In this document: positions 4,066-31,691 of the stretch, in pieces | Numbering within the stretch: position 1 is the first letter of the stretch | Layout: the number at the start of each line of letters is the position of its first letter | Assembly: GCA_044449065.1 (NCBI GenBank) | Contig: JBIOHP010000003.1 | Coordinates: forward strand, 68,076-132,075 | Direction of reading: 5' to 3' | DNA length: 64,000 nucleotides | Source: Bacteroidota bacterium | GTDB lineage: Bacteria; Bacteroidota; Ignavibacteria; UBA10030; SZUA-254 | The notes under the pieces: generated by a model | Database searches by the model: none | Seen by the model: the letters and a program-made list of their open reading frames with translations, nothing else | What the model was told of the DNA's origin: nothing | Program-made: the position numbers and the translations under genes

Positions 4066-4983
4066 ATGCAAATGAAACAATCTTTGATTCTCTGGGTAGT
4101 TGCCTTTATCATTACCGTACTCTCGGCGTTGTATCAATTCATGACGGGTCCATCATACCCGGCAAGAGGAAGTTTGCAATTTAACGGGAAACAAATTTCC
4201 TATACGTTGAATAGAAGTCATGCCGGATCGACAAATTGTCCAGTCGTCGTTACCACGAACGACGAGTCGGTTCAGGGCGTTCTTGAGTGGAAACGGTATA
4301 AAAGCGATGATCCCTGGACGAGCCAGAAAATGACCTTTCAAAATAATACTCTTGTTGGCGAACTACCAGCTCAACCTCCGGCGGGCAAGTTGGAGTATCA
4401 TGTCAAACTATCGGATGGAACTGAAAGTCAAAATCTTCCTGAAAACGAGAGTGTGGTAGTGCGTTTTCACGGGGATATCCCGCCGTATATTCTTATTCCA
4501 CATATCCTCGCAATGTTCGGGGGGATGTTCCTTTCCGCCCGCACCGGAATTGAATCGCTGCGGAAAAATCCCAATCTGAAAAAACTCATCATCGTAACGG
4601 TGATGTTATTGCTCGTCGGGGGATTCATCCTCGGACCAATTGTGCAGTGGTTTGCATTCAACGCTTTCTGGACGGGCTGGCCCCTCGGTCACGACCTCAC
4701 CGATAATAAGACTGCTGTTGCCATTGTTGCGTGGATCGTTGCGCTTGCCATGCTTAAGAGATCGAAAAAACCGCACCGCTGGGCTTTGGGCGCAGCCATC
4801 GTTACGCTCGTTGTGTACCTCATTCCCCACAGCGTTTTGGGATCGGAAATCGAGTATAAAAAAGTTGAACAGAATACGACAACTCTTCACACCGTGAACG
4901 AACGGGCGGCAAATTTATGTACCCGGCAATCGAGAATGCATCCTCGTTTGAATTTATATACGGCGAGTGATTTTAACGGATAA
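4066..4983 (+). CDS. Hypothetical integral membrane protein
   Basis: 305-aa ORF. It has an N-terminal TM segment, a roughly 130-aa soluble segment, then four or five hydrophobic helices. No family was recognised. Confidence 0.45.
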   Translation: MQMKQSLILWVVAFIITVLSALYQFMTGPSYPARGSLQFNGKQISYTLNRSHAGSTNCPVVVTTNDESVQGVLEWKRYKSDDPWTSQKMTFQNNTLVGELPAQPPAGKLEYHVKLSDGTESQNLPENESVVVRFHGDIPPYILIPHILAMFGGMFLSARTGIESLRKNPNLKKLIIVTVMLLLVGGFILGPIVQWFAFNAFWTGWPLGHDLTDNKTAVAIVAWIVALAMLKRSKKPHRWALGAAIVTLVVYLIPHSVLGSEIEYKKVEQNTTTLHTVNERAANLCTRQSRMHPRLNLYTASDFNG

Positions 4984-5003
4984 TACACCCAAGGAATTAT
5001 CGT

Positions 5004-6422
5004 ATGGCTAACCCGGATGAAATGATACGGAGGGCGAAGAAAGCCGCCCGCGCATTCAGAGAATTGGATCAGAAACAAACCGACCGTATCGTGCGGAGCG
5101 TATTTCTTGCGGCGATGAAAAACCGCATTCCTCTTGCAAAGATGGCGGCGGAGGAAACAGGTCTCGGCGTCTGGCAGCATAAGGTCATAAAGAATATTAT
5201 CGCAAGCCAATTGGTGTATGAACATATCAGTCCTCATAAAACTGTCGGAATAATCTCGGAAGATCCCCTTTCGGGCGTTATCGAGCTTGCGCAGCCGATC
5301 GGTCCTATTCTGGCGTTAGTGCCGGTGATTAACCCAACCTCGACGGTTATCTTTAAATCGCTCATCACGATGAAGACCCGCAATCCGGTAATCTTCAGCA
5401 CCACTGCGGCGGCTAAAAATTGCGTAGCGGAAACAGCGCAGATTTGCTACGACGCCGCCATTGCAGCCGGCGCACCGGAGCATTGCATCCAGTGGCTGAC
5501 CAAACCGAATCTGCTGACGACGAAGGAACTGATGAGCCATAACGGTTTGGCGCTCATCCTGGCGACAGGAACCGGCGAAATGGTGAAAACGAGCTATAGC
5601 TCCGGAACGCCGACAATCGGAGTCGGTGCAGGGAACGTGCCGGTGTACATCGGCACATCAGCCGATATCCCTTTTGCGGTGCAAAGTATTCTCTCTTCGA
5701 AAACGTTTGATAACGGCTCGATTTGCGCGAGCGAACAGGCGGTGGTGGTGAAGCGAAATTCCGCCGATCAACTGATTGCAGAGTTCAAAAAACAAAACGC
5801 GTATTTCCTCACGCCTCCCGAGATTGAAAAAGTGGGCCGCATCGCCTATGATAAAAATAAAAATGTGATGAGCGCCGCCGTTGTTGGGCAATCGCCCCAT
5901 CGCATCGCGGAAATGGCTGGTATTCAAATTCCCGCTGAAACCCGGGTGCTCATCGCGATACTCGATACGGTTTCGCGCGATTGTCCTCTCTCCGCGGAAA
6001 TCCTCGCTCCAATTCTCGCCTTTTATATAGAAGAAGATTTTGAAAAATCCATCGAACGGTGCAGCGAGATCACGCGATTCGGCGGGTTAGGTCACACAGC
6101 GGTAATCTATTCCAACAACCCGGAGCGGATTGAATACTTCACGCAACACATGGATGTCGCGCGCATCCTGGTGAACACTCCTTCAACCCAGGGAGCGCTG
6201 GGGGGGATGTTCAACACGCTGCCGCCCTCGTTTACGCTGAGCTGCGGAACCGGCGGAAAGAATAGCACAACCGGAAATATTTCCACCCGCCATCTCCTGA
6301 ATGTCCACCGCATCTGTCGCCGGCGCATTAACGAACGGTGGATGAACGTGAATCAGGAAAAATATCTTGATGAATCAATGGGCGCTGAGGAATTGGAAAA
6401 AGAGTATTACAAGAACTCGTAA
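5004..6422 (+). CDS. CoA-acylating aldehyde dehydrogenase (AdhE N-terminal domain-like / EutE-PduP family)
   Basis: 472 aa of ALDH-superfamily sequence. It resembles the acetaldehyde dehydrogenase half of AdhE (ELAQPIGPILALVPVINPTSTVIFK, GTGEMVKTSYSSGTPTIGVGAGN, FDNGSICASEQ with a catalytic Cys). Confidence 0.7.
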   Translation: MANPDEMIRRAKKAARAFRELDQKQTDRIVRSVFLAAMKNRIPLAKMAAEETGLGVWQHKVIKNIIASQLVYEHISPHKTVGIISEDPLSGVIELAQPIGPILALVPVINPTSTVIFKSLITMKTRNPVIFSTTAAAKNCVAETAQICYDAAIAAGAPEHCIQWLTKPNLLTTKELMSHNGLALILATGTGEMVKTSYSSGTPTIGVGAGNVPVYIGTSADIPFAVQSILSSKTFDNGSICASEQAVVVKRNSADQLIAEFKKQNAYFLTPPEIEKVGRIAYDKNKNVMSAAVVGQSPHRIAEMAGIQIPAETRVLIAILDTVSRDCPLSAEILAPILAFYIEEDFEKSIERCSEITRFGGLGHTAVIYSNNPERIEYFTQHMDVARILVNTPSTQGALGGMFNTLPPSFTLSCGTGGKNSTTGNISTRHLLNVHRICRRRINERWMNVNQEKYLDESMGAEELEKEYYKNS

Positions 6423-6760
6423 TTTTGATTTAACTCCAGCTCGGCGGTCATTGTCCACGAGTGTGTCCGAGAACTCGTAGTAGCGCGTCACCAGACCCGC
6501 GCGAATGCCCAATCGGATTCATAATAGCCGCCGATCCGTTGATCGGGTACTACAAAACATGGTTATCGGACAGACTCCCACACCATGACCGAGAAAAAGC
6601 AAAATAATTTTTATCCATTCACCCGCTTTATACGACCACACCTTGCGAGTGGTTGTCGCTCGTGCCTGAGAAACAATTGATACTTTAGCATGTGCCTGGC
6701 AACATATAAAACCATTGAATAGAACAAACGGTATTATTTCAAGTGTACCGGTTCTGCCAG

Positions 6761-6849
6761 TGAAACCCCCTGTCCCCCTTTGACCCGCCAGAATGAACTT
6801 GTCGGGCTGGCGGGTCAAAGGGGGACCGCCGAAGGCGAGGGGGTTTCAT
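6761..6849. repeat. Long imperfect inverted repeat forming a hairpin (31-nt and 42-nt arms, 16-nt loop)
   Basis: Left arm tgaaaccccctgtccccctttgacccgccag; right arm ctggcgggtcaaaggggga[ccgccgaaggcg]agggggtttca. The arms are reverse complements of each other apart from a 12-nt insertion. Confidence 0.6.
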
Positions 6850-7100
6850 ATGGTGAACAATTTATTTTCATATCTGGCGGTCATGGTCCACACCATGACC
6901 GGAATCATGCAAAAAGTGAACGAGACTCAACCTGCTTATTCACCTATCCCATTTGGATTATATATTCATTTCTGAATAATAATTAATCTAATTTGTTTGT
7001 TCTATGCGATTCATACCCATTCAGGAGAGAGACTTATGAAACAAAAAATCCTTAAATTATGTTGATGTTAATACACGTTCATTAAACCAAAGGATTTATT

Positions 7101-9752
7101 TTGAAAAAATTATTTCTGCGGATAAAAATACCCATAAATTCGTTCCCATTCCTCATTTTTTTGTTTGTTAACGGTTCGTTATTCGTTCCTTTGTATGGAC
7201 AAAATTTCCTAACCAATACCCGCAAGCTGCCTATTGTTACGGGGGAGGCAACTATCCACCATTACGAATATGTTCTTCCCGATGGCTGGATTTACCGGTA
7301 CGACATCGATAACGGACATACGCTCATCGATAGCTTCAGCATTCCAACTTCGCAGGGCACGCGGGGCGTTTCGGTCAATCCCCCTACCGGCATGATGTAT
7401 ATCAGCTATCGCGGCGATGGCGGCTTCCGCGGCAATGGCTCCATCCTGCAATTCAATCTCCTCACCAATACTGTCGGATGGAATAAAAGCTACTCGCATG
7501 GGATTGACAGCCATGAAGCATCCCCGGATGGCAAGATAATATATAGTCCCGATGGAGAACTCTCCGGCGATGGAAAATGGTATCTCATCAACGCGTCCGA
7601 TGGCAGTGAAACAGGTGTTACTATTAATACATCGACTCAGGGACCGCATAACACCATCGTCAGTTTGGATGGCACGCGGCTGTATATGGGCGACCGCGAT
7701 CCGTATAATGTCGGCAACGATTATTTCTACGTTGCAAACACAGCGAACGATTCGGTAATTCAAAAGGTCGGTCCGCTTATCAGGGGAATCAGACCATTCA
7801 CGATTAACGGCAAAGGCACAATCGCATATATCACCATCACAGGTTTTCTTGGATTTCAAGTCGGCAGCATCACTACCGGTAATGTTCTCTTTACCGTTGA
7901 TCTGACGAAAATGGGTTTTACCATCAGCCGCTGCTTTACCGATGGTTTCCCCGGCGGAAATTGCCAGACAAGTCACGGCATCTCGCTTTCACCGGATGAG
8001 AAAGAGATTTATGTCATCGATTCGCCGAACAGCTATGTGCATGTGTTTGATGTAAGCGGGGTTGAGAGCGGCACCGCGCCGGTAAAGATCGCCGATATTC
8101 ATTTGAACCACCCCTTCTTAGGTCAGGCGTCGAGCTGCGCGTATGATTGTTTACAGATCGGCTGGCTGCAGCACAGTCTTGACGGCAGGTATGTCTATGT
8201 CGGCGATTGCGGAGATATAATAGAGACGGCGACGCATTCGATCGTCGGCTTTATACCCGCGATGCGCAACACGAGAAAGATAATTGAAATAGATTTCCAA
8301 AACGGCAGCCCCATAGCCACAAGCACCCGGCAGGGAATAGGGTATGTGAGAGGCAATTCCGCGCCTTCGAGTCCGCTATTATCTAATCCTGTTAATGGCG
8401 CCACGGGTGAACCGACGAATATAACATTAAGCTGGAATAAAGCAAACGGCGATTCAATGTACCGTGTGCAGGCGGGAACTGATTCTAATTTTACTTCTAT
8501 CGTTATCGATGATTCGGCATTGGTTGACACATTCAAGCAAATCCCATCCTTATTGAATGCGACCTCATATTTTTGGCGGGTTCGAGCAAAAAATGTAAAC
8601 GGATTAAGCCCCTGGTCGCAGACCTGGAAATTCACAACTACTGCGTCGTCGCTTCCGGCGCCTAGGTTGGTATCGCCGGATAGTTCCTCAACGAACATGC
8701 CTACACTGGAAGTTCTCCACTGGAATAATGTTGCGGCGGCGGATTCATACAGAGTACAACTTGCTGCCGGTTTCGCCTTCGTTTCCCTCGAGAAAGATAC
8801 CGTCATCGCTATCGATTCAGTCATGATTGATAGCTTACTCCCTTCCAGTAAATACTATTGGCGTGTTGCTGCAAAGAACAGCCAGGGATTAGGTCCATGG
8901 TCTGAAACTTGGTGGTTTGCCACCCAGCGGCGTTGGGTTTCAGTGAACGTTTCACTCACGCATGGATGGAATATGGTTTCCGTTCCGGTAATTCCAAGAG
9001 ATTCATTGGCTGCTGCCATATTTCAAAATTCCTATTCAAGCGTTTATGGATACAGGGGCGGGTATGTCTCCGATGACACGCTTATCAATGGCGCCGGTTA
9101 TTGGGTAAAGTATCTGCGGGACACCAGTTTGTCCATAAGCGGATACGATATCGTTTCTGATACATTCAATGTTCTTGAGGGTTGGAATTTAATTGGATCT
9201 ATCAGTTCACCTTTCCCAACAACAAAAGTAACATCGTTGCCCGGAGGGTTGCAAGCATCCGGATTTTTTAGATATTCAACAGGATACCACCAGGTGGATA
9301 CGCTTCAACCGGGAGTTGGTTATTGGGTCAAGATAGATCAAGCAGGACAATTGATTTTCGCATCATCGAACGCAGCATCAGATTTATTTTCACTGAAAAT
9401 TATTCCAACTAACGAACTTCCCCCAAATCCACCCGACGCAATCGATCAGTCAAAAACCGGGATTCCCGAAAAGTTTTCGCTGGAACAGAATTATCCCAAT
9501 CCGTTCAATCCGACCACGGTATTTCAATATGCATTGCCTCTTGAAGCCATAGTCACATTGAAAGTATATAATGTCCTTGGGGAAGAGGTCGCAACATTGG
9601 TGAACGGAACACAACCGGCTGGTTTTAAATCAATAACATGGGATGGGAGTATGTTATCCAGCGGCGTGTATTTTTATAGTCTCGAGGCAGCCAGCGTTTC
9701 CGATCCGGCAAGATCATTCAGGCAAGTTCGGAAGATGCTGCTGTTGAAGTGA
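7101..9752 (+). CDS. Secreted multidomain T9SS cargo protein: N-terminal beta-propeller-like region, Fn3-like repeats, a duplicated 'GWN...GYWVK' module, and a type-A T9SS C-terminal sorting domain
   Basis: There is a signal peptide. Fn3-like repeats are recognisable (YRVQAGTDSNF...YFWRVRAKNVNGLSPWSQTWKFTT, twice). The C-terminal CTD motif is PNPFNPTT...VYNVLGEEVATLVNG...SGVYFYSLEA...KMLLLK. Confidence 0.8.
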   Translation: MKKLFLRIKIPINSFPFLIFLFVNGSLFVPLYGQNFLTNTRKLPIVTGEATIHHYEYVLPDGWIYRYDIDNGHTLIDSFSIPTSQGTRGVSVNPPTGMMYISYRGDGGFRGNGSILQFNLLTNTVGWNKSYSHGIDSHEASPDGKIIYSPDGELSGDGKWYLINASDGSETGVTINTSTQGPHNTIVSLDGTRLYMGDRDPYNVGNDYFYVANTANDSVIQKVGPLIRGIRPFTINGKGTIAYITITGFLGFQVGSITTGNVLFTVDLTKMGFTISRCFTDGFPGGNCQTSHGISLSPDEKEIYVIDSPNSYVHVFDVSGVESGTAPVKIADIHLNHPFLGQASSCAYDCLQIGWLQHSLDGRYVYVGDCGDIIETATHSIVGFIPAMRNTRKIIEIDFQNGSPIATSTRQGIGYVRGNSAPSSPLLSNPVNGATGEPTNITLSWNKANGDSMYRVQAGTDSNFTSIVIDDSALVDTFKQIPSLLNATSYFWRVRAKNVNGLSPWSQTWKFTTTASSLPAPRLVSPDSSSTNMPTLEVLHWNNVAAADSYRVQLAAGFAFVSLEKDTVIAIDSVMIDSLLPSSKYYWRVAAKNSQGLGPWSETWWFATQRRWVSVNVSLTHGWNMVSVPVIPRDSLAAAIFQNSYSSVYGYRGGYVSDDTLINGAGYWVKYLRDTSLSISGYDIVSDTFNVLEGWNLIGSISSPFPTTKVTSLPGGLQASGFFRYSTGYHQVDTLQPGVGYWVKIDQAGQLIFASSNAASDLFSLKIIPTNELPPNPPDAIDQSKTGIPEKFSLEQNYPNPFNPTTVFQYALPLEAIVTLKVYNVLGEEVATLVNGTQPAGFKSITWDGSMLSSGVYFYSLEAASVSDPARSFRQVRKMLLLK

Positions 9753-10078
9753 TTTTCTGCTGGCGTTTCAAGATTGTCTATCCTTGAATTATAATATATA
9801 TCCAATCACCATAACCGATTTTCTGGTATGTGATTATAGAGTAATGGAACCGCAATCTTCATTGACTTCCTCATCAGTTCTAGGTAAATTATAAGTATTA
9901 AATATAGGTTCTCAGAGCGGTTGCAAGTGCGCGTTTCTGTGACCTGATAGAAGAACGAATGTCCGCAATGGTTCATTCATTATTCGCTCCCCTACCGAGC
10001 CACTCCGTGCACGGTTCCCAATATACTAAAATCATCCGGTCTGGAATCAGTTTCAGAAATGCTGATTCGCGCCTATCC

Positions 10079-10098
10079 AATTGACGATATCGTCAATT
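10079..10098. promoter_or_regulatory. 20-bp perfect palindrome AATTGACGATATCGTCAATT; candidate operator
   Basis: Read directly from the sequence. It lies about 35 bp upstream of the small ORF at 10133. Confidence 0.35.
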
Positions 10099-10132
10099 AT
10101 AACGGGATTTCTTGTAGTATTTTATAATTTAT

Positions 10133-10378
10133 ATGAGAAATTTTATTTTATTGCAGGCACGGGATCCATTCCACCTGAACATGACGAACATCGCCCTTGG
10201 ATGTTTTGTGATTGCGCTTGTTGCCTATCTCATTGTCAATATAGTGATCGACTTAAGACAACGGAAAGATAAGAAAAAAATAAAAATGGATTTAAAATCG
10301 ATCCTAACTAAACTTGGAGTAACAATGCAGGATGGCGGGGAGAAATCGAAAAAAGATGATGAGGAACCGGAAGTGTGA
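10133..10378 (+). CDS. Small hypothetical single-TM protein (81 aa) with a Lys/Glu-rich tail
   Basis: ORF with one hydrophobic helix. There is no similarity evidence. Confidence 0.3.
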   Translation: MRNFILLQARDPFHLNMTNIALGCFVIALVAYLIVNIVIDLRQRKDKKKIKMDLKSILTKLGVTMQDGGEKSKKDDEEPEV

Positions 10379-10431
10379 ATAAAGCGAAATGTTTTCTTCT
10401 GGCCGCTCATACCGATAAATCTTTCTAAATG

Positions 10432-11025
10432 TCATTTCTTTTTATACGTCCAGTACTGCGCTTGCGCGCATTTTGGACATATACCGTGAGAGAATGTGAT
10501 ATCGTGATGCGTGGAAAAATACTTTTCTACGCTTTCCCAGTATTGATCGTCATTCCGTATGCTCTTGCAATTTGAGCACATCGGCAACAGGTATCTTAAT
10601 TGATGCAATTCAGTTATATCCTCCATGATCAAAATTGCGTAGGACTCATTATTGTAGGGAAGAGGCGAAGTCGTTACCAATATATCCATTTCTTTTCTTC
10701 CCACACCATCAAGCACCTCAAATCGAGTCCGTTCTCTGTAGACCGTTTTTTGGCGAATGGCAGAGTTGACAGAATTTCTGATGATACAGGAATTGCAGGA
10801 GGTTGAATGACCGCATCCTTCATTCGTTTCGGTTGAATGAAGACAGTGCAGCGCATCTCCCCCCCGTTGTAAATAAACTTTCGATAATTCGGGTCCAAAA
10901 GTGGAAGTTGCCGCGGGATTTATATGATGAATCCGAACGTCCGAATCAACGATGAATAACGGGGAGGGAAGAGAATCAAAAAGTTTGATTAAGAAATCTA
11001 AACTTGAAAATAACAAATTTTGCAT
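10432..11025 (-). CDS. PAS-domain sensor protein with a C-terminal Cys/His-rich putative metal-binding motif
   Basis: The N-terminal region is PAS-like (LFIVDSDVRIHHINPAATSTFG). The C-terminus carries CSNCKSIRNDDQYW...HHDITFSHGICPKCAQ. Confidence 0.55.
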   Translation of the reverse strand: MQNLLFSSLDFLIKLFDSLPSPLFIVDSDVRIHHINPAATSTFGPELSKVYLQRGGDALHCLHSTETNEGCGHSTSCNSCIIRNSVNSAIRQKTVYRERTRFEVLDGVGRKEMDILVTTSPLPYNNESYAILIMEDITELHQLRYLLPMCSNCKSIRNDDQYWESVEKYFSTHHDITFSHGICPKCAQAQYWTYKKK

Positions 11026-11096
11026 CAGGGTTTCAAAAATAAATGAACAAAGTGGATATAGGTAAAGAATATTTGGACATTGCCTCTCATTGCAGA

Positions 11097-12113
11097 TTAT
11101 TTTGTGTCATCGCTAACTATCTCATAGACACGGATCTCCGCATTTAGAACACCGTGTTTAGGAACTGCGAGGTAGTAACGGTTTAATTGTGGGATAAACA
11201 AGGCGGTTCTTGCGCCTTCGGAAGTCGGAACGAGCTCTGCTATTTGATAATGACGAGGGTCCTTTTGTTCTATTACCGCAATGTATCCCTCCCCGCTGGA
11301 AACGAAAATATAATGGTGAACCGGATCAATAAAGATGTCGTCCGCGTCGTGTGGAATTTTTAATAGCGCGATTTCCTTCAGGGAATCAGTATCTAAGATA
11401 AGGAGTCGCGGCGGGGTGCGGTAACCAATGTATAAACGACTACTATTTTCATCGAGCGCCAATGAATAATTATCTCGTAAGTCCTCATGAGTTCTTTTTA
11501 AAATAACTTTGCCTGCTAGGTCGATTATTGCGAGACGATTGATAGTCGGAATATTCACAAAGATTCTATGTCTGATGGATTCAATAGCAAATGCTTCTGG
11601 ATGACCTGTCAGTCCAATATCTGATTCATGAGTCCATGTTAACGGATCGATAATTGCTAGAGAACCGGTTCCAAATCCGAGATACACTTTCCCGGCGTCA
11701 GCGTCATAGCGAAGATTATCGGCGTCATTGTTAAAAGTGAAACGTTTCAACACCGTATATGTGTTGCCGTCAAGAATATTGCATGTTCCATCGCCGCCAT
11801 TCGCAACGACCAGCCGGTTTGAATCTGGTAAAAAGAGAATACCCTGCGGTTCAACGAATCCGCCGATAGATTGAAGCCGTTTTGCCTGCTGAAGATCGAC
11901 AACTTCTACCGAGTTATTTCCCAGCGCCGCGATGAACAATCTCCCTCCCATCGGATCATACGCTATGTGATCAATTCGCCCGGCAACGTCGGGAAGGGGA
12001 ATTGTTTGTACTAATTTTAATCGTGATGAGGATTGCAATTCGAATGGAAGGAATACGCTATAAAAGAGTAACGATGCGATAAACGTTGGTATTCTCATGG
12101 TATTGTGCGGCAC
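11097..12113 (-). CDS. Secreted beta-propeller repeat protein (YVTN/YncE-like)
   Basis: It has a signal peptide and repeated blade-like segments about 40 aa long (e.g. DHIAYDPMGGRLFIAALGNNSVEVVDL; LVVANGGDGTCNILD). Confidence 0.55.
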   Translation of the reverse strand: MPHNTMRIPTFIASLLFYSVFLPFELQSSSRLKLVQTIPLPDVAGRIDHIAYDPMGGRLFIAALGNNSVEVVDLQQAKRLQSIGGFVEPQGILFLPDSNRLVVANGGDGTCNILDGNTYTVLKRFTFNNDADNLRYDADAGKVYLGFGTGSLAIIDPLTWTHESDIGLTGHPEAFAIESIRHRIFVNIPTINRLAIIDLAGKVILKRTHEDLRDNYSLALDENSSRLYIGYRTPPRLLILDTDSLKEIALLKIPHDADDIFIDPVHHYIFVSSGEGYIAVIEQKDPRHYQIAELVPTSEGARTALFIPQLNRYYLAVPKHGVLNAEIRVYEIVSDDTK

Positions 12114-23091: not shown

Positions 23092-23164
23092 CGCGGGGTG
23101 GAGCAATTGGTAGCTCGTTGGGCTCATAACCCAAAGGCTGTAGGTTCAAGTCCTACCCCCGCTA
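23092..23164 (+). tRNA. Initiator tRNA-fMet (anticodon CAU), with no CCA encoded
   Basis: Manual fold: acceptor CGCGGGG/CCCCGCU with a 1:72 C-U mismatch, which is an initiator hallmark; D-arm GAGC-AATTGGTA-GCTC; anticodon stem TTGGG/CCCAA with the three consecutive G-C pairs typical of initiators; loop CTCATAA; T-arm GTAGG-TTCAAGT-CCTAC. It closely resembles E. coli tRNA-fMet. Confidence 0.85.
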
Positions 23165-23184
23165 CAATAACTACAGAAACCTCA
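23154..23184 (+). repeat. attL-like 31-bp direct repeat (TACCCCCGCTACAATAACTACAGAAACCTCA) overlapping the 3' end of tRNA-fMet
   Basis: It is identical to 29424-29454, giving a perfect 31/31 match as read from the sequence. Confidence 0.8.
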
Positions 23185-23298: not shown

Positions 23299-24102
23299 TT
23301 AAATCAACTTGTCGGCATATTTGAGGGCATCCATTCCACGTTGGACATTTAGCAGTTTTTCATATTGATCCATTGTCGCCGTGTCCCCTAAAGGATTTGT
23401 TTTGAGTATTTTGGGATAGATCACAAGCCAGATAGTGCATATCCAACCAATTGTGTCTTCCGTTAACTCACAAATCCTTTCAAATAGTTGTTCGTCGAAA
23501 TCAGGCGTATCTGCCCCCATATTTATTGAGTTTGTCGGGAGATCGTCATCGTTAGAATAAGGGCGACTATGTGTAAAGTTGCAAAGATATTGGAAATGAC
23601 TATATATTTCATTTACGATATCGCAAGAATCCTGAATATTAAAGTCTTTTATTGGCTGCAATTTATTTATTAAGGTTTTCATTTCACGCCAATTGGGAGT
23701 ATCCCTCTTTCCACATTCCCATTCACTAAAATATTTCTCGTCTCCGTTTTTGGTGAAATCTTCACGGGCCTGAAAATACAGACTAACCGTTGCTATATCG
23801 AGAGCATTTCTTAAAAGAGTAGCCGCTGATTTATAGAATCCCGAACAAAGATTCCATGCAGCAGCATTAATATCATCAGAAACGTCAACAAAGGTCCAGT
23901 TTATTATTTCGTCATCGCCTGCTATCTTGGGATCATTGATTTGAGTGTACCCGTAAACAAATCCTAGCATTTCATCTACTTTTTGTCCCAAGTACTTTAA
24001 TCTGTTGATTCTTGTAGGATCCGAGAGTGTGATAGTATTGGCTTGTTGTGCTAATTCGATTATCCTGCGACTTTTAGCTCCCATACTTGTTGTGGTCTTC
24101 AT
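23299..24102 (-). CDS. Hypothetical protein (267 aa) at the island edge
   Basis: Long ORF with no recognisable motifs. It is acidic and has no TM segments. Confidence 0.45.
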   Translation of the reverse strand: MKTTTSMGAKSRRIIELAQQANTITLSDPTRINRLKYLGQKVDEMLGFVYGYTQINDPKIAGDDEIINWTFVDVSDDINAAAWNLCSGFYKSAATLLRNALDIATVSLYFQAREDFTKNGDEKYFSEWECGKRDTPNWREMKTLINKLQPIKDFNIQDSCDIVNEIYSHFQYLCNFTHSRPYSNDDDLPTNSINMGADTPDFDEQLFERICELTEDTIGWICTIWLVIYPKILKTNPLGDTATMDQYEKLLNVQRGMDALKYADKLI

Positions 24103-24748
24103 ATTACTCTATCCTATATATTGATTTTTGAGAAAGGGAATTGTTATTAAAGTATCCAACGAGGAGTAAATTGCCAGCAGGCTTAGTGGTAATGTCATTT
24201 TTGTTATAAATTTGAATCCTATTACCTGAGGCACCTGGGAGTGTACATATCCAAAGAAATCATCAGCCCGCACCCTTATCGGGCGTCGTTGACTTCAATC
24301 ACAGATACAAAAAAAAATCTCAGATTTTCAGATCAAGATTGTAGACAATGCTACGCATATTTGATTTCAATTAATTATTTTTCTGTTTGTATGATCCATT
24401 ATTTTTTATCACCATTAGTGACAATTTCGAAAATATTCAGTCTTCAAATGAAGGCAATGCTTTATAATATACAGTTATTGATTTAAATAATAAATAGAGT
24501 GTGTGTTTTTTGTTGTCAAAACAATTGAATGATATTCATAGTTTAATTCCATTAGGTAGGGATTTGATCAAAATCTATAACCATATCATGATGGTGTTTA
24601 ATGAGCCCATAATGAAACATCCATTAATATGGAGGAAATTGAGCAGAATTAGGGATAGATCATTGATATCGTTTAATTTAGATCGTTAGCGAGTCCGTTC
24701 GTTAACTTGATTAAAGCATAATAATTATGTATCTTTTTCCCACCACGG

Positions 24749-25414
24749 GTGATAAGAAAATCACCTCGCATTGATGATTTTATAAGAACATATGAAAGGA
24801 GAAGCAGTATGTCAAATGCCATTGTCCCTCGGTTGACTATCGCAGACATATGCTACGGTGTAGTTAGCTACGGTGCAACATTGATTAGATTGGGCATAGC
24901 CGCAGCAGTTGCTGTGATCATTATTGGCGACGTTAATTGGAATAAAGTCGTCGTTAGCTTGGGCATTGTTCTTGTGATGGTGCTCGATTACCTTGATGGA
25001 ATACTTTTTAGTCGATCTGTCATGAACAATGACAAATCTTGGAGAATCCGAAGACGAATAGTTGATTCCGTAATTGATCGAATTGTAATACAGGCCGTCT
25101 GTATTCCGTTAGTTTTGATATACAATTCTTTCCAGCCCTTCTTTCTGATTATCCTTGCTAGGGAAGTGTTCATGTCTACTTTCTTAACAAGAGTTTTTGC
25201 TCGAAATATTCTTATTTATCCTAGCAAGGTTTCTCGTCTATCTATGATCATGATAGGAATTACTGTTATCGCCTATGCTTTAAACTACAGCAATGTTGCT
25301 GTATTGGCAGCCACATTGATGATTGGATTTAGTCTAATATCATTTCAAGAATACAAAAAGAGGTTAAGTAATAACCAAGGCGATTCAATAATCGAGCTAC
25401 GCGAGATTCAATGA
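24749..25414 (+). CDS. Polytopic membrane protein with a degenerate CDP-alcohol phosphatidyltransferase-like motif
   Basis: About five TM helices. The segment DYLDGILFSRS...RIVDSVID resembles D-G-x2-A-R...D-x3-D, but the motif is imperfect. Confidence 0.4.
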   Translation: MIRKSPRIDDFIRTYERRSSMSNAIVPRLTIADICYGVVSYGATLIRLGIAAAVAVIIIGDVNWNKVVVSLGIVLVMVLDYLDGILFSRSVMNNDKSWRIRRRIVDSVIDRIVIQAVCIPLVLIYNSFQPFFLIILAREVFMSTFLTRVFARNILIYPSKVSRLSMIMIGITVIAYALNYSNVAVLAATLMIGFSLISFQEYKKRLSNNQGDSIIELREIQ

Positions 25415-26061
25415 GTCACGACTTTGAGTATTTCAAAAAACGATTTAACCTCATAATAAATTCGGGCGTGGGAATATGTCTGTTTATCGGGTTGGTTCTC
25501 TGTGGCATCGACAGATTGGATGTATTCGTTATAGATAAGAGTCAGTTATTTAACAAGTTCCTTTTTATATTCATACCCTGTGCCATAATAGTGTTAGCAT
25601 CCCAATTCGGCATGCGTACGTTTAAAAACAAAATTCAGGAAAAAACGGCCACGATTTGCCTTTTTTTCTCTGCTGTGTCTTTCATCGTGTTAATGGCGAT
25701 ACCTGTCTACTTCTTCGGGGGTGCTCATAAATCTTGCTTTACTCCCATCTTGATAACTGTTTCAAGTATGAGTGTTATCACAACAAAATCAAGGCAGATC
25801 AAGTTCATATTCTTCGGAGTTTGTTTAGCTCTATTTATTATTCTGTCAATGCCTGGATACTATCAAGAAATTTCAATTAATCCAAACATTGTATGGAAAA
25901 ATTATACAGGTGCTGATCTTTACAGTTTCATGGAGACAGCATCGGTTGTTGCTTGCCTTATAGTGAGTATTGCTTTGACTTGGAACGCAGGTTTGATATT
26001 CAAAGAAGACAATCCTCCCCAAACAAACGATAGCGGCCAACCAATTCAGCAAAGTTCTTAG
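25411..26061 (+). CDS. Hypothetical polytopic membrane protein; its start overlaps the upstream stop (ATGA), so the two genes form an operon
   Basis: 216 aa with 5-6 hydrophobic helices. It is translationally coupled to the upstream gene. Confidence 0.45.
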   Translation: MSHDFEYFKKRFNLIINSGVGICLFIGLVLCGIDRLDVFVIDKSQLFNKFLFIFIPCAIIVLASQFGMRTFKNKIQEKTATICLFFSAVSFIVLMAIPVYFFGGAHKSCFTPILITVSSMSVITTKSRQIKFIFFGVCLALFIILSMPGYYQEISINPNIVWKNYTGADLYSFMETASVVACLIVSIALTWNAGLIFKEDNPPQTNDSGQPIQQSS

Positions 26062-26924
26062 CTAAATCACCCAACTTCAATTTAGAGGCAGCTGAAACAA
26101 ATCTACCAATCTCACTGTAGATCGAAAGATTCTATGTGTGCCAACTCAGGAAAATACTAGGGTGTCCACAAACAAAACAAACCCTTGAAATAATCATCAA
26201 TTGCATGTGCGCGACGTTGAATAATGTTGATGCAATTAAACTTTCTACCTTCTTCTCAAATCAATTTTCTGTCCATAATTGTAGAATAAGGCACAAAAAC
26301 AATCCTGGACAAAGGCATCCCTAGAAGGAAATAATGGTTCTTTGGTTCATATCTTTAACCTTTACTATATTTACATTGAAACTCTATGAATGAATCGACA
26401 ATCTCGAAAATAGAATCAGTCGGAAACCTAATAAGGTTGAATAAATCAAACAATGTTGAAATATAATCATATATCTTCACAAATCTTCACACTCAATGTG
26501 AACGAGGGGGAGATATTTATTTGTCTCAAAATAAACTACTCAAGATAATTGTGAATAACTTATTCAGTTGAAAATTTAATTTGAAAATCTGCTCTGAGAT
26601 TGTTAATAATGTACCATTCCCTATTGTTGAGAGGCTCAGATTAAAAATTATTGGTTTATTGATTTAAGAAACAAAGTTTCTTATCTTCAATTGTCTTAGG
26701 AAATTGTCATAAAATATTAATAAAGTTACCGATACTTGGTTTACATTTCAACCTAAGAACCGTTCTTAATTATCAAACAAATGAAACTCGATCAAAAAGA
26801 ATTTCATTTCTATTACCGTTCACATGATTGAAAGCTTGGTAAATAACACGGATATTTTCAAATGATATGGTAAATGTTTGTTGACTTTAAGAAATCTGTT
26901 AATATAGTTAACTAAAATCATGGA

Positions 26925-26953
26925 TTGACACGTTTTGTATACGATTTTATAAC
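26925..26953 (+). promoter_or_regulatory. Candidate sigma70-type promoter (TTGACA-17 bp-TATAAC) upstream of the radical SAM gene
   Basis: The sequence is ttgacaCGTTTTGTATACGATTTtataac, about 120 bp upstream of the ATG at 27071. A second weaker candidate, TTGACT-16-TATAGT, is at 26881-26908. Confidence 0.35.
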
Positions 26954-27070
26954 ATAATTCATATGGAAAAACAACATAGCTATTTACCAAACCCAAATGA
27001 CTACTTAATTTGTTTTCCAAGCATGGCTTATTCAGGATTGCAGTTAATGACCACGACTGGATGAATCATA

Positions 27071-28507
27071 ATGAAAAAATTTAATCTTGCCTTGATCTCA
27101 CCCGGTAGAGAAGGAAGTGTGGTTTCTGGTCGGTGGAAAGGAATGGTAAATTTCTATCGCCTCACACTTCCATTGCTTGCTGGTCTAACACCGAAGGATC
27201 GTTACACGATTTCTATTTTTGATGAATGCGTTGATACAATTCCTCTGGATAGAGATTTTGATTTGGTGGCCATGAGTGTTATGACTGCTTATGCTCCAAG
27301 AGCATACGAATTGTGCCGTAATTTGCAAAAACGTGGATCTATCGTTGTTTTAGGAGGTCATCACCCTACTCTTCTTCCAACTGAAGCGATGGAATATGCT
27401 GATACAGTTGCCATAGGAGACGCTGAGGCAATCTGGCCACAGATTCTACAAGACTTTGAAAAAGGGATTCTCCAGAAAATATATCATGGTACAGATATTG
27501 GAGCTGATTTCAACCGATCTCTTTATCCCGATAGGTATTCTGTTAAACAAAAATCAATGCTTGTTTTTAATACAGTCGAAACCTCCCGAGGGTGTCCATA
27601 TCTTTGTGATTATTGCACAATTGCTTCATTCTATAAATCTAGTTATAGAAAATATAGCATTGAATCTGTAATGAGGGATATCGAATCTACAAATGGGAAA
27701 TACATTTTTTTTGTCGATGATAATCTCATTGGTGGAAACGCTCAAGACAGGAATCGTACTAAAGAGTTACTACGGGCCTTAATCCCTCTAAATAAACGAT
27801 GGTTTTGTCAGGCGACCGTCAAATTTGCTGATGACGAAGAGCTTCTTTCACTTGCTGCCTTGGCTGGCTGCGTTGGTGTGTATTTAGGTCTGGAATCAAT
27901 ATCGACTGAAAGCCTCAATGAGGTTAGGAAAGGATGGAACAAGCCCGAATCCTATTCGGAACGCATTAAGCGAATTCGTAGTGCAGGTATTGCAATCGAA
28001 GCTGGCTTGATATTCGGATTTGATCACGACAATCGTGATGTTTTCAAGCGTACGGCAGAATTCATTATCCAGACAGGAATCGAGAGTCCAAATGGCCATC
28101 TTCTAACTCCATATCCGGGGACACCTCTATTTGATCGAATGCAATCAGAAAAACGAATTCTTACCTACGATTGGAGCCTTTATAACACTGGTAATGTGGT
28201 CTTTAAACCCCTTAAGATGACTCCCGATGAATTATTTGAAGGATATGTCAACTGGTATCAGAAAATGTTCTCAACCTCGACAATCGTTGAGAGACTCACG
28301 AAGGCAAATTTTCCTTATTATACTGCCCTCATCGGATTAGCCAAGGCTATCGAGGTTAGGAGAAGAGAATTTCACATTCGGAAAACTACGATAGATAGCA
28401 AAACCTGTCCTACGAACCTGATAATTGATTGTGGTGCTATACCTGAGACTTTCAACAGTACCGAACGCCACTCATTTGATACGATTAACGTTCAAACAAC
28501 TCTTTAA
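27071..28507 (+). CDS. B12-binding (class B) radical SAM enzyme
   Basis: The N-terminal cobalamin-binding-like domain reads LVAMSVMTAYAPRAYELCRNLQKRGSIVVLGGHHPTLLP. The radical SAM CxxxCxxC motif is SRGCPYLCDYCTIAS. Confidence 0.8.
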   Translation: MKKFNLALISPGREGSVVSGRWKGMVNFYRLTLPLLAGLTPKDRYTISIFDECVDTIPLDRDFDLVAMSVMTAYAPRAYELCRNLQKRGSIVVLGGHHPTLLPTEAMEYADTVAIGDAEAIWPQILQDFEKGILQKIYHGTDIGADFNRSLYPDRYSVKQKSMLVFNTVETSRGCPYLCDYCTIASFYKSSYRKYSIESVMRDIESTNGKYIFFVDDNLIGGNAQDRNRTKELLRALIPLNKRWFCQATVKFADDEELLSLAALAGCVGVYLGLESISTESLNEVRKGWNKPESYSERIKRIRSAGIAIEAGLIFGFDHDNRDVFKRTAEFIIQTGIESPNGHLLTPYPGTPLFDRMQSEKRILTYDWSLYNTGNVVFKPLKMTPDELFEGYVNWYQKMFSTSTIVERLTKANFPYYTALIGLAKAIEVRRREFHIRKTTIDSKTCPTNLIIDCGAIPETFNSTERHSFDTINVQTTL

Positions 28508-28854
28508 CTAAATTTGAAAGTCGAAATACATTCGACTCTATACTATCTTCATCAATTAAACATGGTTGCTTTGAATTAATTGTTTGAGAAGGTAAAAGTT
28601 ATAGTATCATTCTTCTGTAGTTATTGTTTCGGGCCCCCGCTACCAGAGAAAACCGGTTTCTGAAAAGAGATCGGCTTTTGTTATAATGAGGTACAGACTG
28701 TCAAAGCGGAACCGGTTGAAATGATTGATGTGTTCCGTTTGATTCACGAATGATTTAGCGCCAAACGGATACCTTGCCTCAATATCGATTTCGCTCAAGC
28801 GGGCTTGGTTACTCTAGATATTATTTCATTAATTTTTATCAGAATGGAAAAACG

Positions 28855-29421
28855 ATGAAACTGAAGCTTTTTGATCCACATGAAACCGATCAGATGCAGC
28901 GGTACGCCGGCATTCCTCTTGCCTCGTTTACTTCACGGGGAATTGCATTGTTTATCGACGTCCTCGCGGGCTCTGTCTTCACGTTCTTTATAGTTGTGCT
29001 TATTACCTTAACCCAATACTTTCTTTTCCACGTATCTGAACGACCGGACACGTTTGGCAATGCGCTGCTGAAAGAAATGATTGATACCGGATTAGGTACC
29101 GAAAAACCCGGCGGTGACGTTGTTGTTGCTCTGAATCCTCATTCAAGCGTGTTCACCGCGATCGGCATTGGCATCTATTTTGCCATCATAACATACGTGA
29201 CAAACGGGAGTTCGCTGGGCAAGCGGTTGATGAGGATTCGGGTGATCTCTTTAGTGCACGAAAAGATATCCGTCTGGCAATCGGTTGAACGAGCCCTGGG
29301 ATATTCGGCTTCCCTTGCGGAAGCGGGATTTGGGTTTTTTCAATACTTCATTCATCCAAACCGCCGCACCGTCCATGACAGGATTGCGGAGACGATTGTG
29401 ATTAAGGTGGTGAAGAAGTAA
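28855..29421 (+). CDS. Small polytopic membrane protein (RDD-family-like)
   Basis: The in-frame ATG at 28855 follows a GGAAAAA ribosome-binding site. There are three hydrophobic helices, and the GKRLMRIRV motif resembles the RDD family. The stop codon lies 3 nt before the attR-like repeat. Confidence 0.4.
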   Translation: MKLKLFDPHETDQMQRYAGIPLASFTSRGIALFIDVLAGSVFTFFIVVLITLTQYFLFHVSERPDTFGNALLKEMIDTGLGTEKPGGDVVVALNPHSSVFTAIGIGIYFAIITYVTNGSSLGKRLMRIRVISLVHEKISVWQSVERALGYSASLAEAGFGFFQYFIHPNRRTVHDRIAETIVIKVVKK

Positions 29422-29423
29422 CG

Positions 29424-29454
29424 TACCCCCGCTACAATAACTACAGAAACCTCA
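29424..29454 (+). repeat. attR-like 31-bp direct repeat copy
   Basis: Identical to 23154-23184. Confidence 0.8.
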
Positions 29455-29710: not shown

Positions 29711-30334
29711 ATGAAAAGAACGTCACTCGATCTTGAACAACATATTTTTCACTCACCTAATTTTCGGAGTGTAATTACAGAGGCAGTAAAATTTTTCCGT
29801 AGTACACCTCCAGTTGATCTTCCGCCTGGAGAGAAATTTATAGGTGGGGGTGTCTATGCATTGTACTACAAAGGGACATTTAAATATTATAAGCCACTCG
29901 CAAAGCAAAATGCGAAGGAATTTGTTCAACCAATATATGTTGGGAAAGCTGTTCCTCCCGGATGGAGGACAGGGAGAATCTCAAACTCTGAAAGTATGGA
30001 TTTATTCCGTAGACTGAGTGAGCATGCTAAGAGCATAATGCAGGCACAAAACCTGAATCTGGTGGATTTTCGATGTCGGTTCGTTATCTTGAACGAAGCA
30101 GAGGGTGATCTGATTGTTCCCCTGGAAGCCGAGTTAATTCGAGTTTATTCTCCGATCTGGAATCAGGTCGTTGATGGATTCGGAAATCACGACCCAGGCT
30201 CAGGGAGGTATGATCAAGCAACATCAGAATGGGATATTTTGCATCCGGGACGAACATGGACAAAAAACCTTCGAGGAGTCGCGCCAGTTCTTAAAAACAT
30301 TGTCGCCAACGTAAAAGCTGCTCTCGTTAAATAA
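29711..30334 (+). CDS. Hypothetical protein with a GIY-YIG-like motif; candidate type II restriction endonuclease (Eco29kI/Cfr42I-like class) partnered with the convergent methyltransferase
   Basis: GGGVYALYY...QPIYVGKA gives a GVY...IYVG motif, followed by conserved R (GWRTGR) and E/N positions (LNEAEGD, IWN). It is about 207 aa, a size typical of GIY-YIG restriction enzymes. It is convergent with and 8 bp from the methyltransferase stop. Confidence 0.4.
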   Translation: MKRTSLDLEQHIFHSPNFRSVITEAVKFFRSTPPVDLPPGEKFIGGGVYALYYKGTFKYYKPLAKQNAKEFVQPIYVGKAVPPGWRTGRISNSESMDLFRRLSEHAKSIMQAQNLNLVDFRCRFVILNEAEGDLIVPLEAELIRVYSPIWNQVVDGFGNHDPGSGRYDQATSEWDILHPGRTWTKNLRGVAPVLKNIVANVKAALVK

Positions 30335-30341
30335 AGAAATA

Positions 30342-31691
30342 TTATTTCTTCTTAACGACTACGACAGCTTCGTAGAGTGAGTGAGAGTTCTTCGCTTTTG
30401 TCACGCGTACCGTTGATTGAATAATGCTATTGCCTATTCGGGTTTTTCGTGGCACGTTAATCTCGATCAACTTAAGACCACAATACTCTGCGATTTCTCC
30501 GAAAAATTCATCCGTTGGAATTTGGATTCCCTGAAGGATACTGTTCCCAATGACAATAAATGCGTAGTGATCACTCTTGAGCGCATGCTTTATTCCCGTT
30601 GCAAGCTTATGGCAGTCGTTAAAATATGAAATTGCATAATTTGCCCAACCCTTGCCGCCATATATCCCTTTTTCCTGATTGCAACCACTCAAATTTTGGA
30701 TCGTCTTAATCAGTTTATCCGATGGAGATGAAAATTCCCATCTTACATTGTCTTTTTCTCTGACGGTCTGCCAGTACTTACCGAAGTTCATCTCTTCAAG
30801 TTTCTGCATATCGTCCGTGCTCAATGCATATCCTAACCAATAGAGTTGAGGTCGAGTGTTCCGGTTGTAATGGTAGTTATTGAGATATGGTGGTGACGTG
30901 ATTACAATGTCTATTGATTCTTTCATCAGGTGCTTCGTCACATTGAAAAAAGAATCGTTAATAACCGTTCCTTTTCCATGGAGAGGGTTGGGCTTAAATT
31001 GAATTTCTTCAACATCCTCAGACATTTCAGATAGCTTCGATTTCATCGTCTCGATCACGGGAAAGTCATCGAACTCGTTCTTGCCGGAACCCTTGCGTGT
31101 TCCTAAACTAGGCTCATACGAATAATTCGAATATCGAACCATCGTCGCACCGAAGGCGAGCATGAATAAATCATTAATCCGTTTATTCTTCAAAGACGAG
31201 ATAAAATCTTGAATCACCAAGACCTTCCTGAGAATCTTTGGATTGTAGAATGCAATTCGAGTCTTGAAGGTCTCGGGGGGCTTGCTGAACGGTGTATAAT
31301 TCGATTTAAGAGTATTAATGCAGAATTCCTCGAATAGGTCGATATTTTTCCTGAGCAATTTGAGGTCAATACTCAAAGATGCCACCTTTACTTTGCTTGC
31401 AAGTGCGGCGTAAGGATTGATTTCAAAACCTATAGCATCATGACCGAGCGTGCATGCCTCAATTAGCGTTGTCCCTACTCCTGCAAATGGATCAAGCACC
31501 GTTCCCTTTTTAGTCATATATCGCTGCAGGACATCCTGAACGAAGAGACTCGAAAATCCAGCTATCCAAGGAACCCATCTGTGAATGGGTAGTGATTTGT
31601 TATTAGCAAATGCCGGATCAACAAAATCTTCACCGTTCTTTCGCAAACGGGAAGCAACATTTAGTTCGAAGAGTTCGGTTTGTAAGTGCAT
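30342..31691 (-). CDS. Site-specific DNA methyltransferase (amino-methyltransferase, N4-C/N6-A type)
   Basis: AdoMet motif I DPFAGVGTTLIEA and catalytic motif IV VITSPPYLNNY. SPPY favours N4-cytosine specificity. Confidence 0.75.
   Translation of the reverse strand: MHLQTELFELNVASRLRKNGEDFVDPAFANNKSLPIHRWVPWIAGFSSLFVQDVLQRYMTKKGTVLDPFAGVGTTLIEACTLGHDAIGFEINPYAALASKVKVASLSIDLKLLRKNIDLFEEFCINTLKSNYTPFSKPPETFKTRIAFYNPKILRKVLVIQDFISSLKNKRINDLFMLAFGATMVRYSNYSYEPSLGTRKGSGKNEFDDFPVIETMKSKLSEMSEDVEEIQFKPNPLHGKGTVINDSFFNVTKHLMKESIDIVITSPPYLNNYHYNRNTRPQLYWLGYALSTDDMQKLEEMNFGKYWQTVREKDNVRWEFSSPSDKLIKTIQNLSGCNQEKGIYGGKGWANYAISYFNDCHKLATGIKHALKSDHYAFIVIGNSILQGIQIPTDEFFGEIAEYCGLKLIEINVPRKTRIGNSIIQSTVRVTKAKNSHSLYEAVVVVKKK

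Follow-up and report, generated by a model that had tools for sequence, protein, structure and literature searches.

A tRNA-associated island carrying a divergent CDP-alcohol phosphotransferase-like gene and a class-B radical SAM gene, a proposed variant of a defence-island-associated three-gene operon

The window analysed here, a stretch of 64,000 nucleotides from a Bacteroidota bacterium (assembly GCA_044449065.1, contig JBIOHP010000003.1, positions 68,076 to 132,075), contains a small genomic island whose cargo includes a putative cytidine diphosphate (CDP)-alcohol phosphotransferase (w221), a six-helix membrane protein (w216), and a class-B, that is, cobalamin (B12)-binding, radical S-adenosylmethionine enzyme (rSAM). 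Comparison with orthologous loci leads us to conclude that this cassette is a variant of a three-gene operon associated with defence islands, in which the two genes upstream of the rSAM belong to different families with putatively analogous roles, and we infer that the cargo joins parts of different ancestry into an architecture that other loci preserve as a tightly packed operon. As to its product, our leading, although tentative, reading is that the module is a mobile cassette making a radical-modified, phospholipid-like molecule of the envelope. An earlier note on this DNA had described four open reading frames (ORFs) at this site, namely w221, w216, the rSAM, and an RDD-family membrane protein, and all four are present. 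The components of the cassette are as follows:

24749-25414, plus strand: w221, divergent CDP-alcohol phosphotransferase-superfamily membrane enzyme (PF01066; family profile against PgsA)
25411-26061, plus strand: w216, six-helix membrane protein of a new family (AlphaFold2 model; family alignment)
26062-27070: AT-rich spacer of 1,009 bp, GC 0.31 (sequence)
27071-28507, plus strand: class-B (cobalamin-binding) rSAM, 478 aa, intact (Pfam domains; clade residues)

The operon was recognised through the relatives of the rSAM. Fifteen orthologues (P0002-P0016) share 54-76% identity with the window enzyme, and eight of their loci were inspected, the rSAMs of which are about 56-76% identical to that of the window. 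We define the canonical operon as a gene for a CDP-alcohol phosphotransferase (CDP-OH_P_transf, here the transferase), a gene for a 635-728-aa membrane protein, and the B12-rSAM gene. All three genes are present as an operon in six of the eight loci, and the other two keep the membrane gene and the rSAM. Every orthologue locus examined is rich in restriction-modification (R-M), Abi, toxin-antitoxin, or insertion sequence (IS) genes, and the window matches this pattern through an adjoining Eco29kI R-M system. The eight loci and their neighbours are:

L003: transferase 189 aa, membrane protein 703 aa, rSAM, operon at 5291-9395; neighbours type I R-M, Dcm-type methylase, AbiEi
L004: transferase 193 aa, membrane protein 644 aa, rSAM; neighbours PDC-S01, UPF0175/DUF3368, PIN/MazE
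L101: transferase 187 aa, membrane protein 635 aa (gene at 4671-6578), rSAM; neighbours NotI R-M, IS3, BrnT/CopG
L102: transferase 183 aa, membrane protein 704 aa (gene at 729-2843), rSAM; neighbours RelB-like and AbiEi/AbiEii
L104: transferase 184 aa, membrane protein 711 aa (gene at 9001-11136), rSAM; neighbours RelB-like and AbiEi/AbiEii
P0012 contig: transferase 184 aa, membrane protein 728 aa, rSAM; neighbour AbiEi
L001: membrane protein and rSAM only; neighbours type I HsdR, a Ppl-like gene, an AbiU/AIPR gene
L002: rSAM, with the membrane gene split in two by IS elements; IS-dense region

The genes are tightly packed in L003, L004, and L101, with anything from an 8-nt overlap up to ~110 nt between them, and in L102 and L104 ~0.9-1.4 kb separate the membrane gene from the rSAM, the gap in L104 containing a transposase fragment. 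The first gene of the canonical operon encodes 183-193 aa with the complete DGx2ARx8Gx3Dx3D signature. No partner genes are found near a more distant rSAM (P0017, 50% identity), and scans of genomes and metagenomes for close relatives returned rSAMs of at most 42% identity, all without partner genes. Conservation of gene neighbourhood, which the earlier note had proposed as the check on its gene set, is thus borne out for the link between transferase, membrane protein, and rSAM in the six loci but not for the exact set of w221, w216, rSAM, and RDD gene, which was found together nowhere else examined. A tRNA-Ala lies 2.5 kb upstream of the L104 cassette, and a tRNA-flanked island was considered there and rejected, as no att repeat was found within the locus.

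The window rSAM is full length, keeps all clade-invariant residues, and is identical to a protein (P0001) annotated in a Bacteroidota metagenome-assembled genome (MAG). Its assignment as a B12-binding rSAM, made beforehand from the ORF alone, is upheld by matches above the Pfam cut-offs to the B12-binding domain (PF02310, 41.6 bits against 32.1), Radical_SAM (PF04055, 60.6 against 29.5), and DUF4070 (26.5 against 22), together with a CX3CX2C core formed by C175, C179, and C182 that is invariant in the clade. The search for a characterised family such as BchE that the earlier note had called for was run and reached no named family. None of the NCBIfam equivalogs was reached by the enzyme, the best being TIGR04013 (99.5 bits against a cut-off of 251), and BchE (88.2/481), PhpK (85.8/600), HpnR (79.5/650), HpnJ (78.9/577.6), TIGR04072 (56/360), AprD4, and ApyD (84 bits) were likewise rejected as identities for the protein, all with scores far below cut-off. 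The closest solved structure is AprD4 (6FD2, E=1.2e-13), in the core only. As AprD4 illustrates, a class-B fold is by itself no proof of cobalamin chemistry. The enzyme is accordingly best described as a class-B rSAM of an unnamed clade, with cobalamin use predicted from its domains.

The second component, w221, was an orphan in a word-indexed search, and its family became apparent when w221 and w216, joined end to end, served as the query of an exhaustive search with HMMER against 1.84 billion representatives. This family comprises ~90 cluster representatives of ~200 aa each. By itself, w221 scores 21.4 bits against PF01066 (cut-off 22; E=3.6e-4), the match spanning positions 8-149 of the 152 in the profile, PF01066 is matched by 67 of the 67 aligned family members at E<=0.01 (best E=2.8e-12), and the family profile aligns with Staphylococcus aureus PgsA (7DRJ, E=8.1e-7) between profile positions 45-187 and chain residues 65-208. 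These results substantiate the proposal of the earlier note that the protein resembles CDP-alcohol phosphatidyltransferases. Both hydropathy and the alignment of the family to PgsA indicate a polytopic protein. Like PgsA and PssA (PF01066; 7DRJ), w221 is a protein of ~200 aa with several helices in its membrane core, it keeps the four Asp and the Gly of the signature, and the alignment with PgsA is collinear over ~145 residues.

Within the family, D80, G84, and D110 are invariant, D83, D106, R102, R103, and R111 reach a conservation of at least 90%, and the resulting signature is D-x2-D-G-x2-F-x-[R/K]...R-R-x2-D-S-x2-D-R, which retains the four metal-binding Asp. The degenerate D-G-x...D-x3-D motif noticed earlier is, therefore, real and conserved across the family. 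It does not conform to the canonical D-G-x2-A-R-x8-G-x3-D-x3-D, as it has Phe where Ala is expected and Arg where Gly is expected, the signature Arg sits one position away from its usual place, and the spacing is extended by 5 residues. Unlike PgsA, w221 also scores 18.9 bits against a pgsA equivalog cut-off of 109 and is paired with a dedicated six-helix partner, which the housekeeping PgsA and PssA are without. From these family comparisons, w221 is assigned to a divergent clade of the CDP-alcohol phosphotransferase superfamily, its catalytic activity being predicted. A match to SLATT_1 was discarded (17.9 bits against a cut-off of 41). The conserved first Met of the family is M21, encoded by ATG 24809, with the Shine-Dalgarno-like AAGGAG upstream, and the true product is therefore probably 201 aa, the length given in the public annotation of the source MAG.

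The same annotation gives 149 aa for w216, and the alignment of its family favours the 216-aa start. The two genes overlap by ATGA at 25411-25414 (w221 ending CAA TGA, w216 starting ATG AGT). Together with hydropathy, the PgsA alignment, the AlphaFold2 model of w216, and the fact that both proteins have conserved families, this overlap confirms the pair of polytopic membrane proteins that had been described as translationally coupled. The w216 family has ~21 representatives, which share the motif P-x2-F-[WF]-G-G-x3-S-x-F, and four of its members carry a C-terminal DUF5674. The model is a six-helix bundle with a mean per-residue confidence (pLDDT) of 89.3 and a predicted template-modelling score (pTM) of 0.80. 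It has no significant fold neighbour in the PDB (best E=0.47), and it weakly resembles the membrane domain of a model of phage-encoded 'AdrA' (TM-score 0.60, E=0.28). We conclude that w216 founds a new family of six-helix membrane proteins.

The pair recurs elsewhere. Both L106 and L107 have a w221-like gene (35% identity) directly 5' of a w216-like gene (32%) in the same orientation, adjoined by a DedA/VTT gene that is transcribed divergently. Genes for a DnaG-type primase and a TraD/HerA-like ATPase are close by, which indicates a mobile element. In a separate observation, DUF87/TrwB-type ATPases are encoded beside the w221/w216-like pair in L106 (5260-8277, minus strand) and beside an rSAM of 50% identity in L005 (9400-12183); they share 30% identity over 326 aa, and this is probably a generic ATPase of mobile elements.

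The middle gene of the canonical operon has no match in Pfam, NCBIfam, PADLOC, PHROGs, or the PDB. A profile search with the 700-aa protein found at least 3 homologous proteins, and an AlphaFold2 model built from 3 sequences was unusable (pLDDT 46.6). Across the loci, the membrane proteins are 25-44% identical, the transferases 45-70%, and the rSAMs 56-89%. The disparity is sharpest between L101 and L104, where the rSAM genes are 89.7% and the transferase genes ~75% identical in DNA and the middle genes have no DNA similarity, their proteins being 38% identical; L102 and L104 show the same pattern. The middle gene of L101, L102, and L104 is thus mosaic and hypervariable, lacking DNA similarity although the rSAM genes are 86-90% identical. 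Conserved blocks and nearly all invariant residues of the protein, among them E112, E281, R286, E287, E342, R345, Y346, Y350, and R357, fall in the first 360 residues. Residues 480-680 are the most variable (16-25% identity) and include a stretch of ~110 aa without membrane helices. To judge from these alignments, the middle gene looks like the subject of allele replacement or diversifying selection between conserved flanks.

The cassette lies in an island whose boundaries and other contents are as follows:

23092-23165, plus strand: tRNA-Met (CAT), the integration target of the island (ARAGORN; Rfam tRNA, 66.4 bits)
23154-23184: attL (left attachment site), left copy of the 31-nt direct repeat, TACCCCCGCTACAATAACTACAGAAACCTCA (100% identity repeat; alignment)
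23299-24102, minus strand: w267, soluble 267-aa cargo protein (ORF; GC3 0.36)
28613-28645: inverted att-like remnant, then a direct CCCCCGCTAC (inverted repeats; sequence)
28653-28674, plus strand: terminator-like hairpin followed by a T-run, 3' of the rSAM gene (promoter/terminator scan)
28774-29421, plus strand: RDD-family membrane protein, 215 aa (PF06271, 65.3 bits)
29424-29454: attR (right attachment site), right copy of the perfect 31-nt repeat (repeat search; alignment)
29711-30334, plus strand: Eco29kI-type restriction endonuclease (PF09517, 210 bits; PADLOC REase_II, E=7e-71)
30342-31691, minus strand: methyltransferase of the Eco29kI system, 449 aa (PADLOC MTase_II, E=1.9e-41)

The perfect 31-nt repeats define a mobile unit of 6.27 kb, which contains w267 (minus strand), w221, w216, the 1,009-bp spacer, the rSAM, and the RDD gene. 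The left repeat overlaps the final 12 nt of tRNA-Met, the right one begins 3 nt past the RDD stop codon, and weaker similarity extends ~40 nt past each copy. Between 24 and 28 kb, the GC content is 0.31-0.40 compared with ~0.46-0.53 in the flanks, and the GC content at third codon positions (GC3) of w267, w221, w216, and the rSAM is 0.33-0.41 against 0.52-0.62 in the housekeeping genes to the left. This foreign composition and the perfect repeats at tRNA-Met bear out the horizontal acquisition that had been proposed, and of the features of a tRNA-integrated island, these two are present, with no integrase-like gene among the ORFs between the repeats (ORF list and Pfam). A phage or plasmid origin was considered and rejected: neither w221, w216, nor the 700-aa protein has relatives in INPHARED, PLSDB, or IMG/VR, PHROGs yielded no match, and in INPHARED, PLSDB, and IMG/VR, the relatives of the rSAM are distant and confined to plasmids, with none in phages. 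For w267, there is no match in Pfam, NCBIfam, PADLOC, PHROGs, or the PDB and no relative in the fetched loci, although no deep homologue search was made for it.

At the right end of the island, the RDD gene stands apart from the remaining cargo. The RDD-like domain predicted beforehand is present, with PF06271 matched over the full profile at 65.3 bits against a cut-off of 24.1, and the start is probably ATG 28855. Its membership in the module, which had also been proposed, found no support. The GC3 of the gene is 0.545, which is host-like compared with the 0.33-0.41 of the other cargo genes, and no counterpart exists in any related locus fetched; because of this composition and absence, we place it outside the module, probably as a separate piece. 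It lies inside the repeats, yet it is parted from the rSAM by the inverted att-like remnant and the terminator-like hairpin, although terminator-like sites in the region as a whole do not exceed those in shuffled sequences. The inverted copy itself (28613-28633) matches 19 of 21 nt of the repeat core and, together with CCCCCGCTAC, suggests that the RDD gene arrived through an earlier inversion or a second, small insertion. The Eco29kI pair (29711-31691), directly beyond the right repeat, is arranged on opposite strands with 3' ends adjacent, the endonuclease being of the GIY-YIG type. The GC3 of both genes is also low (0.35-0.45), and the pair may be a second, older insertion. The Eco29kI system and the RDD gene are probably units separate from the cassette.

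If the module works as we tentatively propose, w221 would rely on its retained metal site of four Asp residues and pass a phosphate-linked group to an alcohol from a donor activated with CDP; the donor would most plausibly be CDP-diacylglycerol, with CMP (cytidine monophosphate) released and a phospholipid-like product left in the membrane. The membrane partner, whether w216 or the hypervariable 635-728-aa protein of the canonical operon, would bind, orient, or move this lipid, and the cytoplasmic class-B rSAM would carry out a radical methylation or form a C-C bond at an unactivated carbon of it. The end result would be an unusual lipid of the envelope, with its genes carried on mobile DNA.

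Lipid chemistry of this kind has precedents among B12-rSAMs. GrsA and GrsB (ring synthases of glycerol dialkyl glycerol tetraethers), Gmm (a methylase of glycerol monoalkyl glycerol tetraethers), and HpnP and HpnR (hopanoid methylases) share with the window enzyme a B12-binding Rossmann domain at the N-terminus, the CX3CX2C core, and an extension at the C-terminus, and for all of them the presumed targets are unactivated carbons in membrane lipids. The window rSAM differs from such lipid enzymes in its low HpnR and HpnJ scores given above. For none of GrsA/B, Gmm, and HpnP/R is there a report of an operon shared with a CDP-alcohol phosphotransferase or of a place in a defence island, and the clade of the window enzyme shows both. 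A review of lipid-modifying B12-rSAMs, in which GrsA/B, Gmm, and HpnP/R are the known examples, makes no mention of a CDP-alcohol transferase or phosphatidyltransferase partner (PMC13459092). The claim of the earlier note that the gene set has no characterised counterpart has stood up, since none was found in PADLOC, NCBIfam, PHROGs, the PDB, or the literature.

Further support for a lipid substrate comes from the next relatives of the rSAM (32-42% identity), which occur in fatty-acid-type operons and none of which reaches a named family either. The idea of lipid modification put forward in the earlier note, therefore, gains some support, and the product is a prediction. In many Bacteroidales, the operon encodes an enoyl-CoA hydratase, a KASIII-like protein, the rSAM, a 3-hydroxyacyl-CoA dehydrogenase, and a haem-binding protein; other relatives belong to tandem B12-rSAMs adjoined by GH3 acyl-adenylate-type enzymes. 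The TIGR04072-type 'lipid biosynthesis B12-binding/radical SAM' clusters likewise combine the same broad rSAM family with a lipid or fatty-acid context. They differ from the window in TIGR04072 score (see above) and in using soluble fatty-acid enzymes as partners, and the TIGR04072, GH3, PAP2, and desaturase clusters are without a CDP-alcohol transferase and the 700-aa membrane protein.

The Bacteroidales operon, with an rSAM of ~516 aa, was seen in L017, L020, L024, L026, L033, L034, L049, and others (at ~6000-11100 in each), and this combination of enoyl-CoA hydratase, KASIII-like protein, and B12-rSAM appears to be uncharacterised. On a mobilizable IncF plasmid of Citrobacter portucalensis (L110, NZ_CP134684, 51417-63512), a cluster encodes GH3, five B12-type rSAMs, an N-acetyltransferase, a PAP2 phosphatase, and a fatty-acid desaturase; one rSAM from this plasmid is 39% identical to the window enzyme. 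Seven relatives of the rSAM, with ~40% identity and 572-589 aa (P0033, P0045, P0049, P0077, P0093, P0096, and P0097) carry a STAS domain (PF01740).

A number of observations weigh against the lipid module. In L001, the membrane gene and the rSAM occur without a transferase gene, and in L106 and L107, no rSAM is found near the w221/w216-like pair. On a short contig, the closest homologue of w221 (44% identity) comes after nuoCDE. No homology to the canonical partners was detectable for w221 or w216 (BLAST, HMM, and hhalign, E=0.16-0.27); w221 does not match the subfamily HMM of the canonical transferases, the two clades aligning weakly, at superfamily level, by profile (E=0.0039), and no homologue of the 635-728-aa protein was detected in w216, w221, or the spacer by BLAST, HMM, tblastx, or hhalign. 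In w221, the signature is without its canonical Ala, Arg, and Gly and has a 5-residue insertion, which makes any assignment of donor and acceptor tentative.

The spacer adds to these points, since 1 kb of non-coding DNA between w216 and the rSAM makes co-transcription doubtful. It contains no recognisable gene, RNA, or remnant: a structured RNA there was rejected, as the only find of Rfam was the tRNA, and the spacer has no similarity to HMMs of the partner genes or to related loci. We also rejected the idea that w216 and the spacer represent a decayed 635-728-aa gene, as nothing was found by family HMMs run on 24100-27100 translated in six frames, nor by tblastn, tblastx, or hhalign. A gap of ~900 bp likewise lies 5' of the rSAM in L102. 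The near-consensus promoter that had been credited to the rSAM exists as a sequence (TTGACT-16-TATAGT at 26881-26908) but does not rise above chance: sigma-70-like matches in the region number 31, with 28.8 +/- 5.1 in shuffles, and the spacer has no Bacteroidota-type TAnnTTTG (-7) motif. We, therefore, do not assume a dedicated promoter. Set against all of this is the improbability of the arrangement itself. Genes of the CDP-OH family are rare in any one genome, and the orthologues of this rSAM nearly always come after one. By a rough estimate that assumes a few such genes per genome, a CDP-OH-family gene would stand two genes 5' of this rSAM by chance in ~0.2% of cases, and it is for this reason that we favour a working module.

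An unlikely but serious alternative is that the cassette serves in anti-phage defence or envelope exclusion, with the membrane protein sensing or blocking phage and the enzymes making an effector lipid or other molecule. This overlaps with the lipid module, as it concerns the purpose of the chemistry rather than the chemistry. The earlier note had remarked that a defence function could not be set aside, and the orthologue neighbourhoods raise it to a real contender: every orthologue cassette examined lies among defence or mobile genes, the window adjoins the Eco29kI R-M system, and the middle gene has been exchanged or is diverging much more quickly than the genes on either side of it, most of all in the C-terminal third, a pattern seen in specificity or sensor components. 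However, no PADLOC model fits. With PADLOC v2, neither w221, w216, nor the 700-aa proteins had a match, and the rSAM core was met only by the weak PDC-M51A (34.6-47.4 bits). Islands rich in R-M and toxin-antitoxin genes also gather unrelated cargo, ~9 loci were examined, of which L101, L102, and L104 are mutually related, and a literature search combining these genes with defence terms, Pfam names, and PDC-M51 found nothing relevant. Prokaryotic viperins are radical SAM enzymes encoded among defence genes, and in this respect the window cassette resembles them. To our knowledge, viperins have no B12 domain, act on nucleotide substrates, and need no membrane partners, and the viperin model of PADLOC has no match in the cassette.

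Next in our ranking, and doubtful, is the view that the island is a patchwork without a functional link, in which the rSAM is the stranded survivor of a canonical operon, the spacer a scar, and w221/w216 an independent module. Many of the points listed above fit it: the non-coding spacer and unsupported promoter, the lack of homology to the canonical partners, the existence of a w221/w216-like pair without rSAM elsewhere, and the fact that, at the DNA level, the window and the related loci share the rSAM gene alone. The inverted att remnant, missing integrase, and host-like RDD gene show that the island has been rearranged, and IS elements have disrupted the operon in L002 and L104. Yet the rSAM is full length with its clade-invariant residues kept, the spacer holds no detectable remnant of lost genes, w221, w216, and the rSAM share their low GC3, and the upstream neighbour of the rSAM comes from the same superfamily as the first canonical gene, which is improbable by chance.

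A non-lipid pathway, in which the rSAM would modify a peptide by C-methylation, as for ribosomally synthesised and post-translationally modified peptides (RiPPs), or a cytidylylated small molecule, and the transferase would attach the group to an acceptor, is very improbable: although the rSAM scores comparably on RiPP or phosphonate and lipid models (ApyD 84, PhpK 86, HpnR 80, TIGR04072 56), DUF4070 class-B rSAMs are common in RiPP clusters, and Fom3 acts on a CMP-linked substrate, neither the window nor the canonical operons contain a precursor-peptide gene, phosphoenolpyruvate (PEP) mutase, or cytidylyltransferase, the genes in L003, L004, and L101 are so closely spaced that a conserved small ORF would hardly fit between them, the products of both partner genes are integral membrane proteins, and the nearest relatives lie in the fatty-acid-type operons. 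Fom3 and PhpK are class-B rSAMs, like the window enzyme, and act in phosphonate pathways with cytidylyl-activated intermediates. The window rSAM departs from them in its distance from the PhpK cut-off and in the lack of PEP mutase and cytidylyltransferase among the window ORFs.

Returning to the lipid module, we put forward as a speculation, and an improbable one, that the operon, together with its variant in the window, represents a novel type of mobile anti-phage system that is based at the envelope and acts via a radical-modified phospholipid, with the membrane protein setting specificity. The comparison defines three uncharacterised protein families, namely the w221 clade, the w216 family, and the 635-728-aa family. 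If the cassette does protect cells from phage, no defence system before it would have made use of B12-radical lipid chemistry, and its hypervariable membrane component would provide a handle on the evolution of specificity at the envelope. If the lipid reading is true, the cassette would represent a transferable membrane chemistry in which the transfer of a head group is linked to radical modification by a cobalamin-dependent enzyme, a combination that does not appear in the survey of lipid-modifying radical SAM enzymes (PMC13459092).

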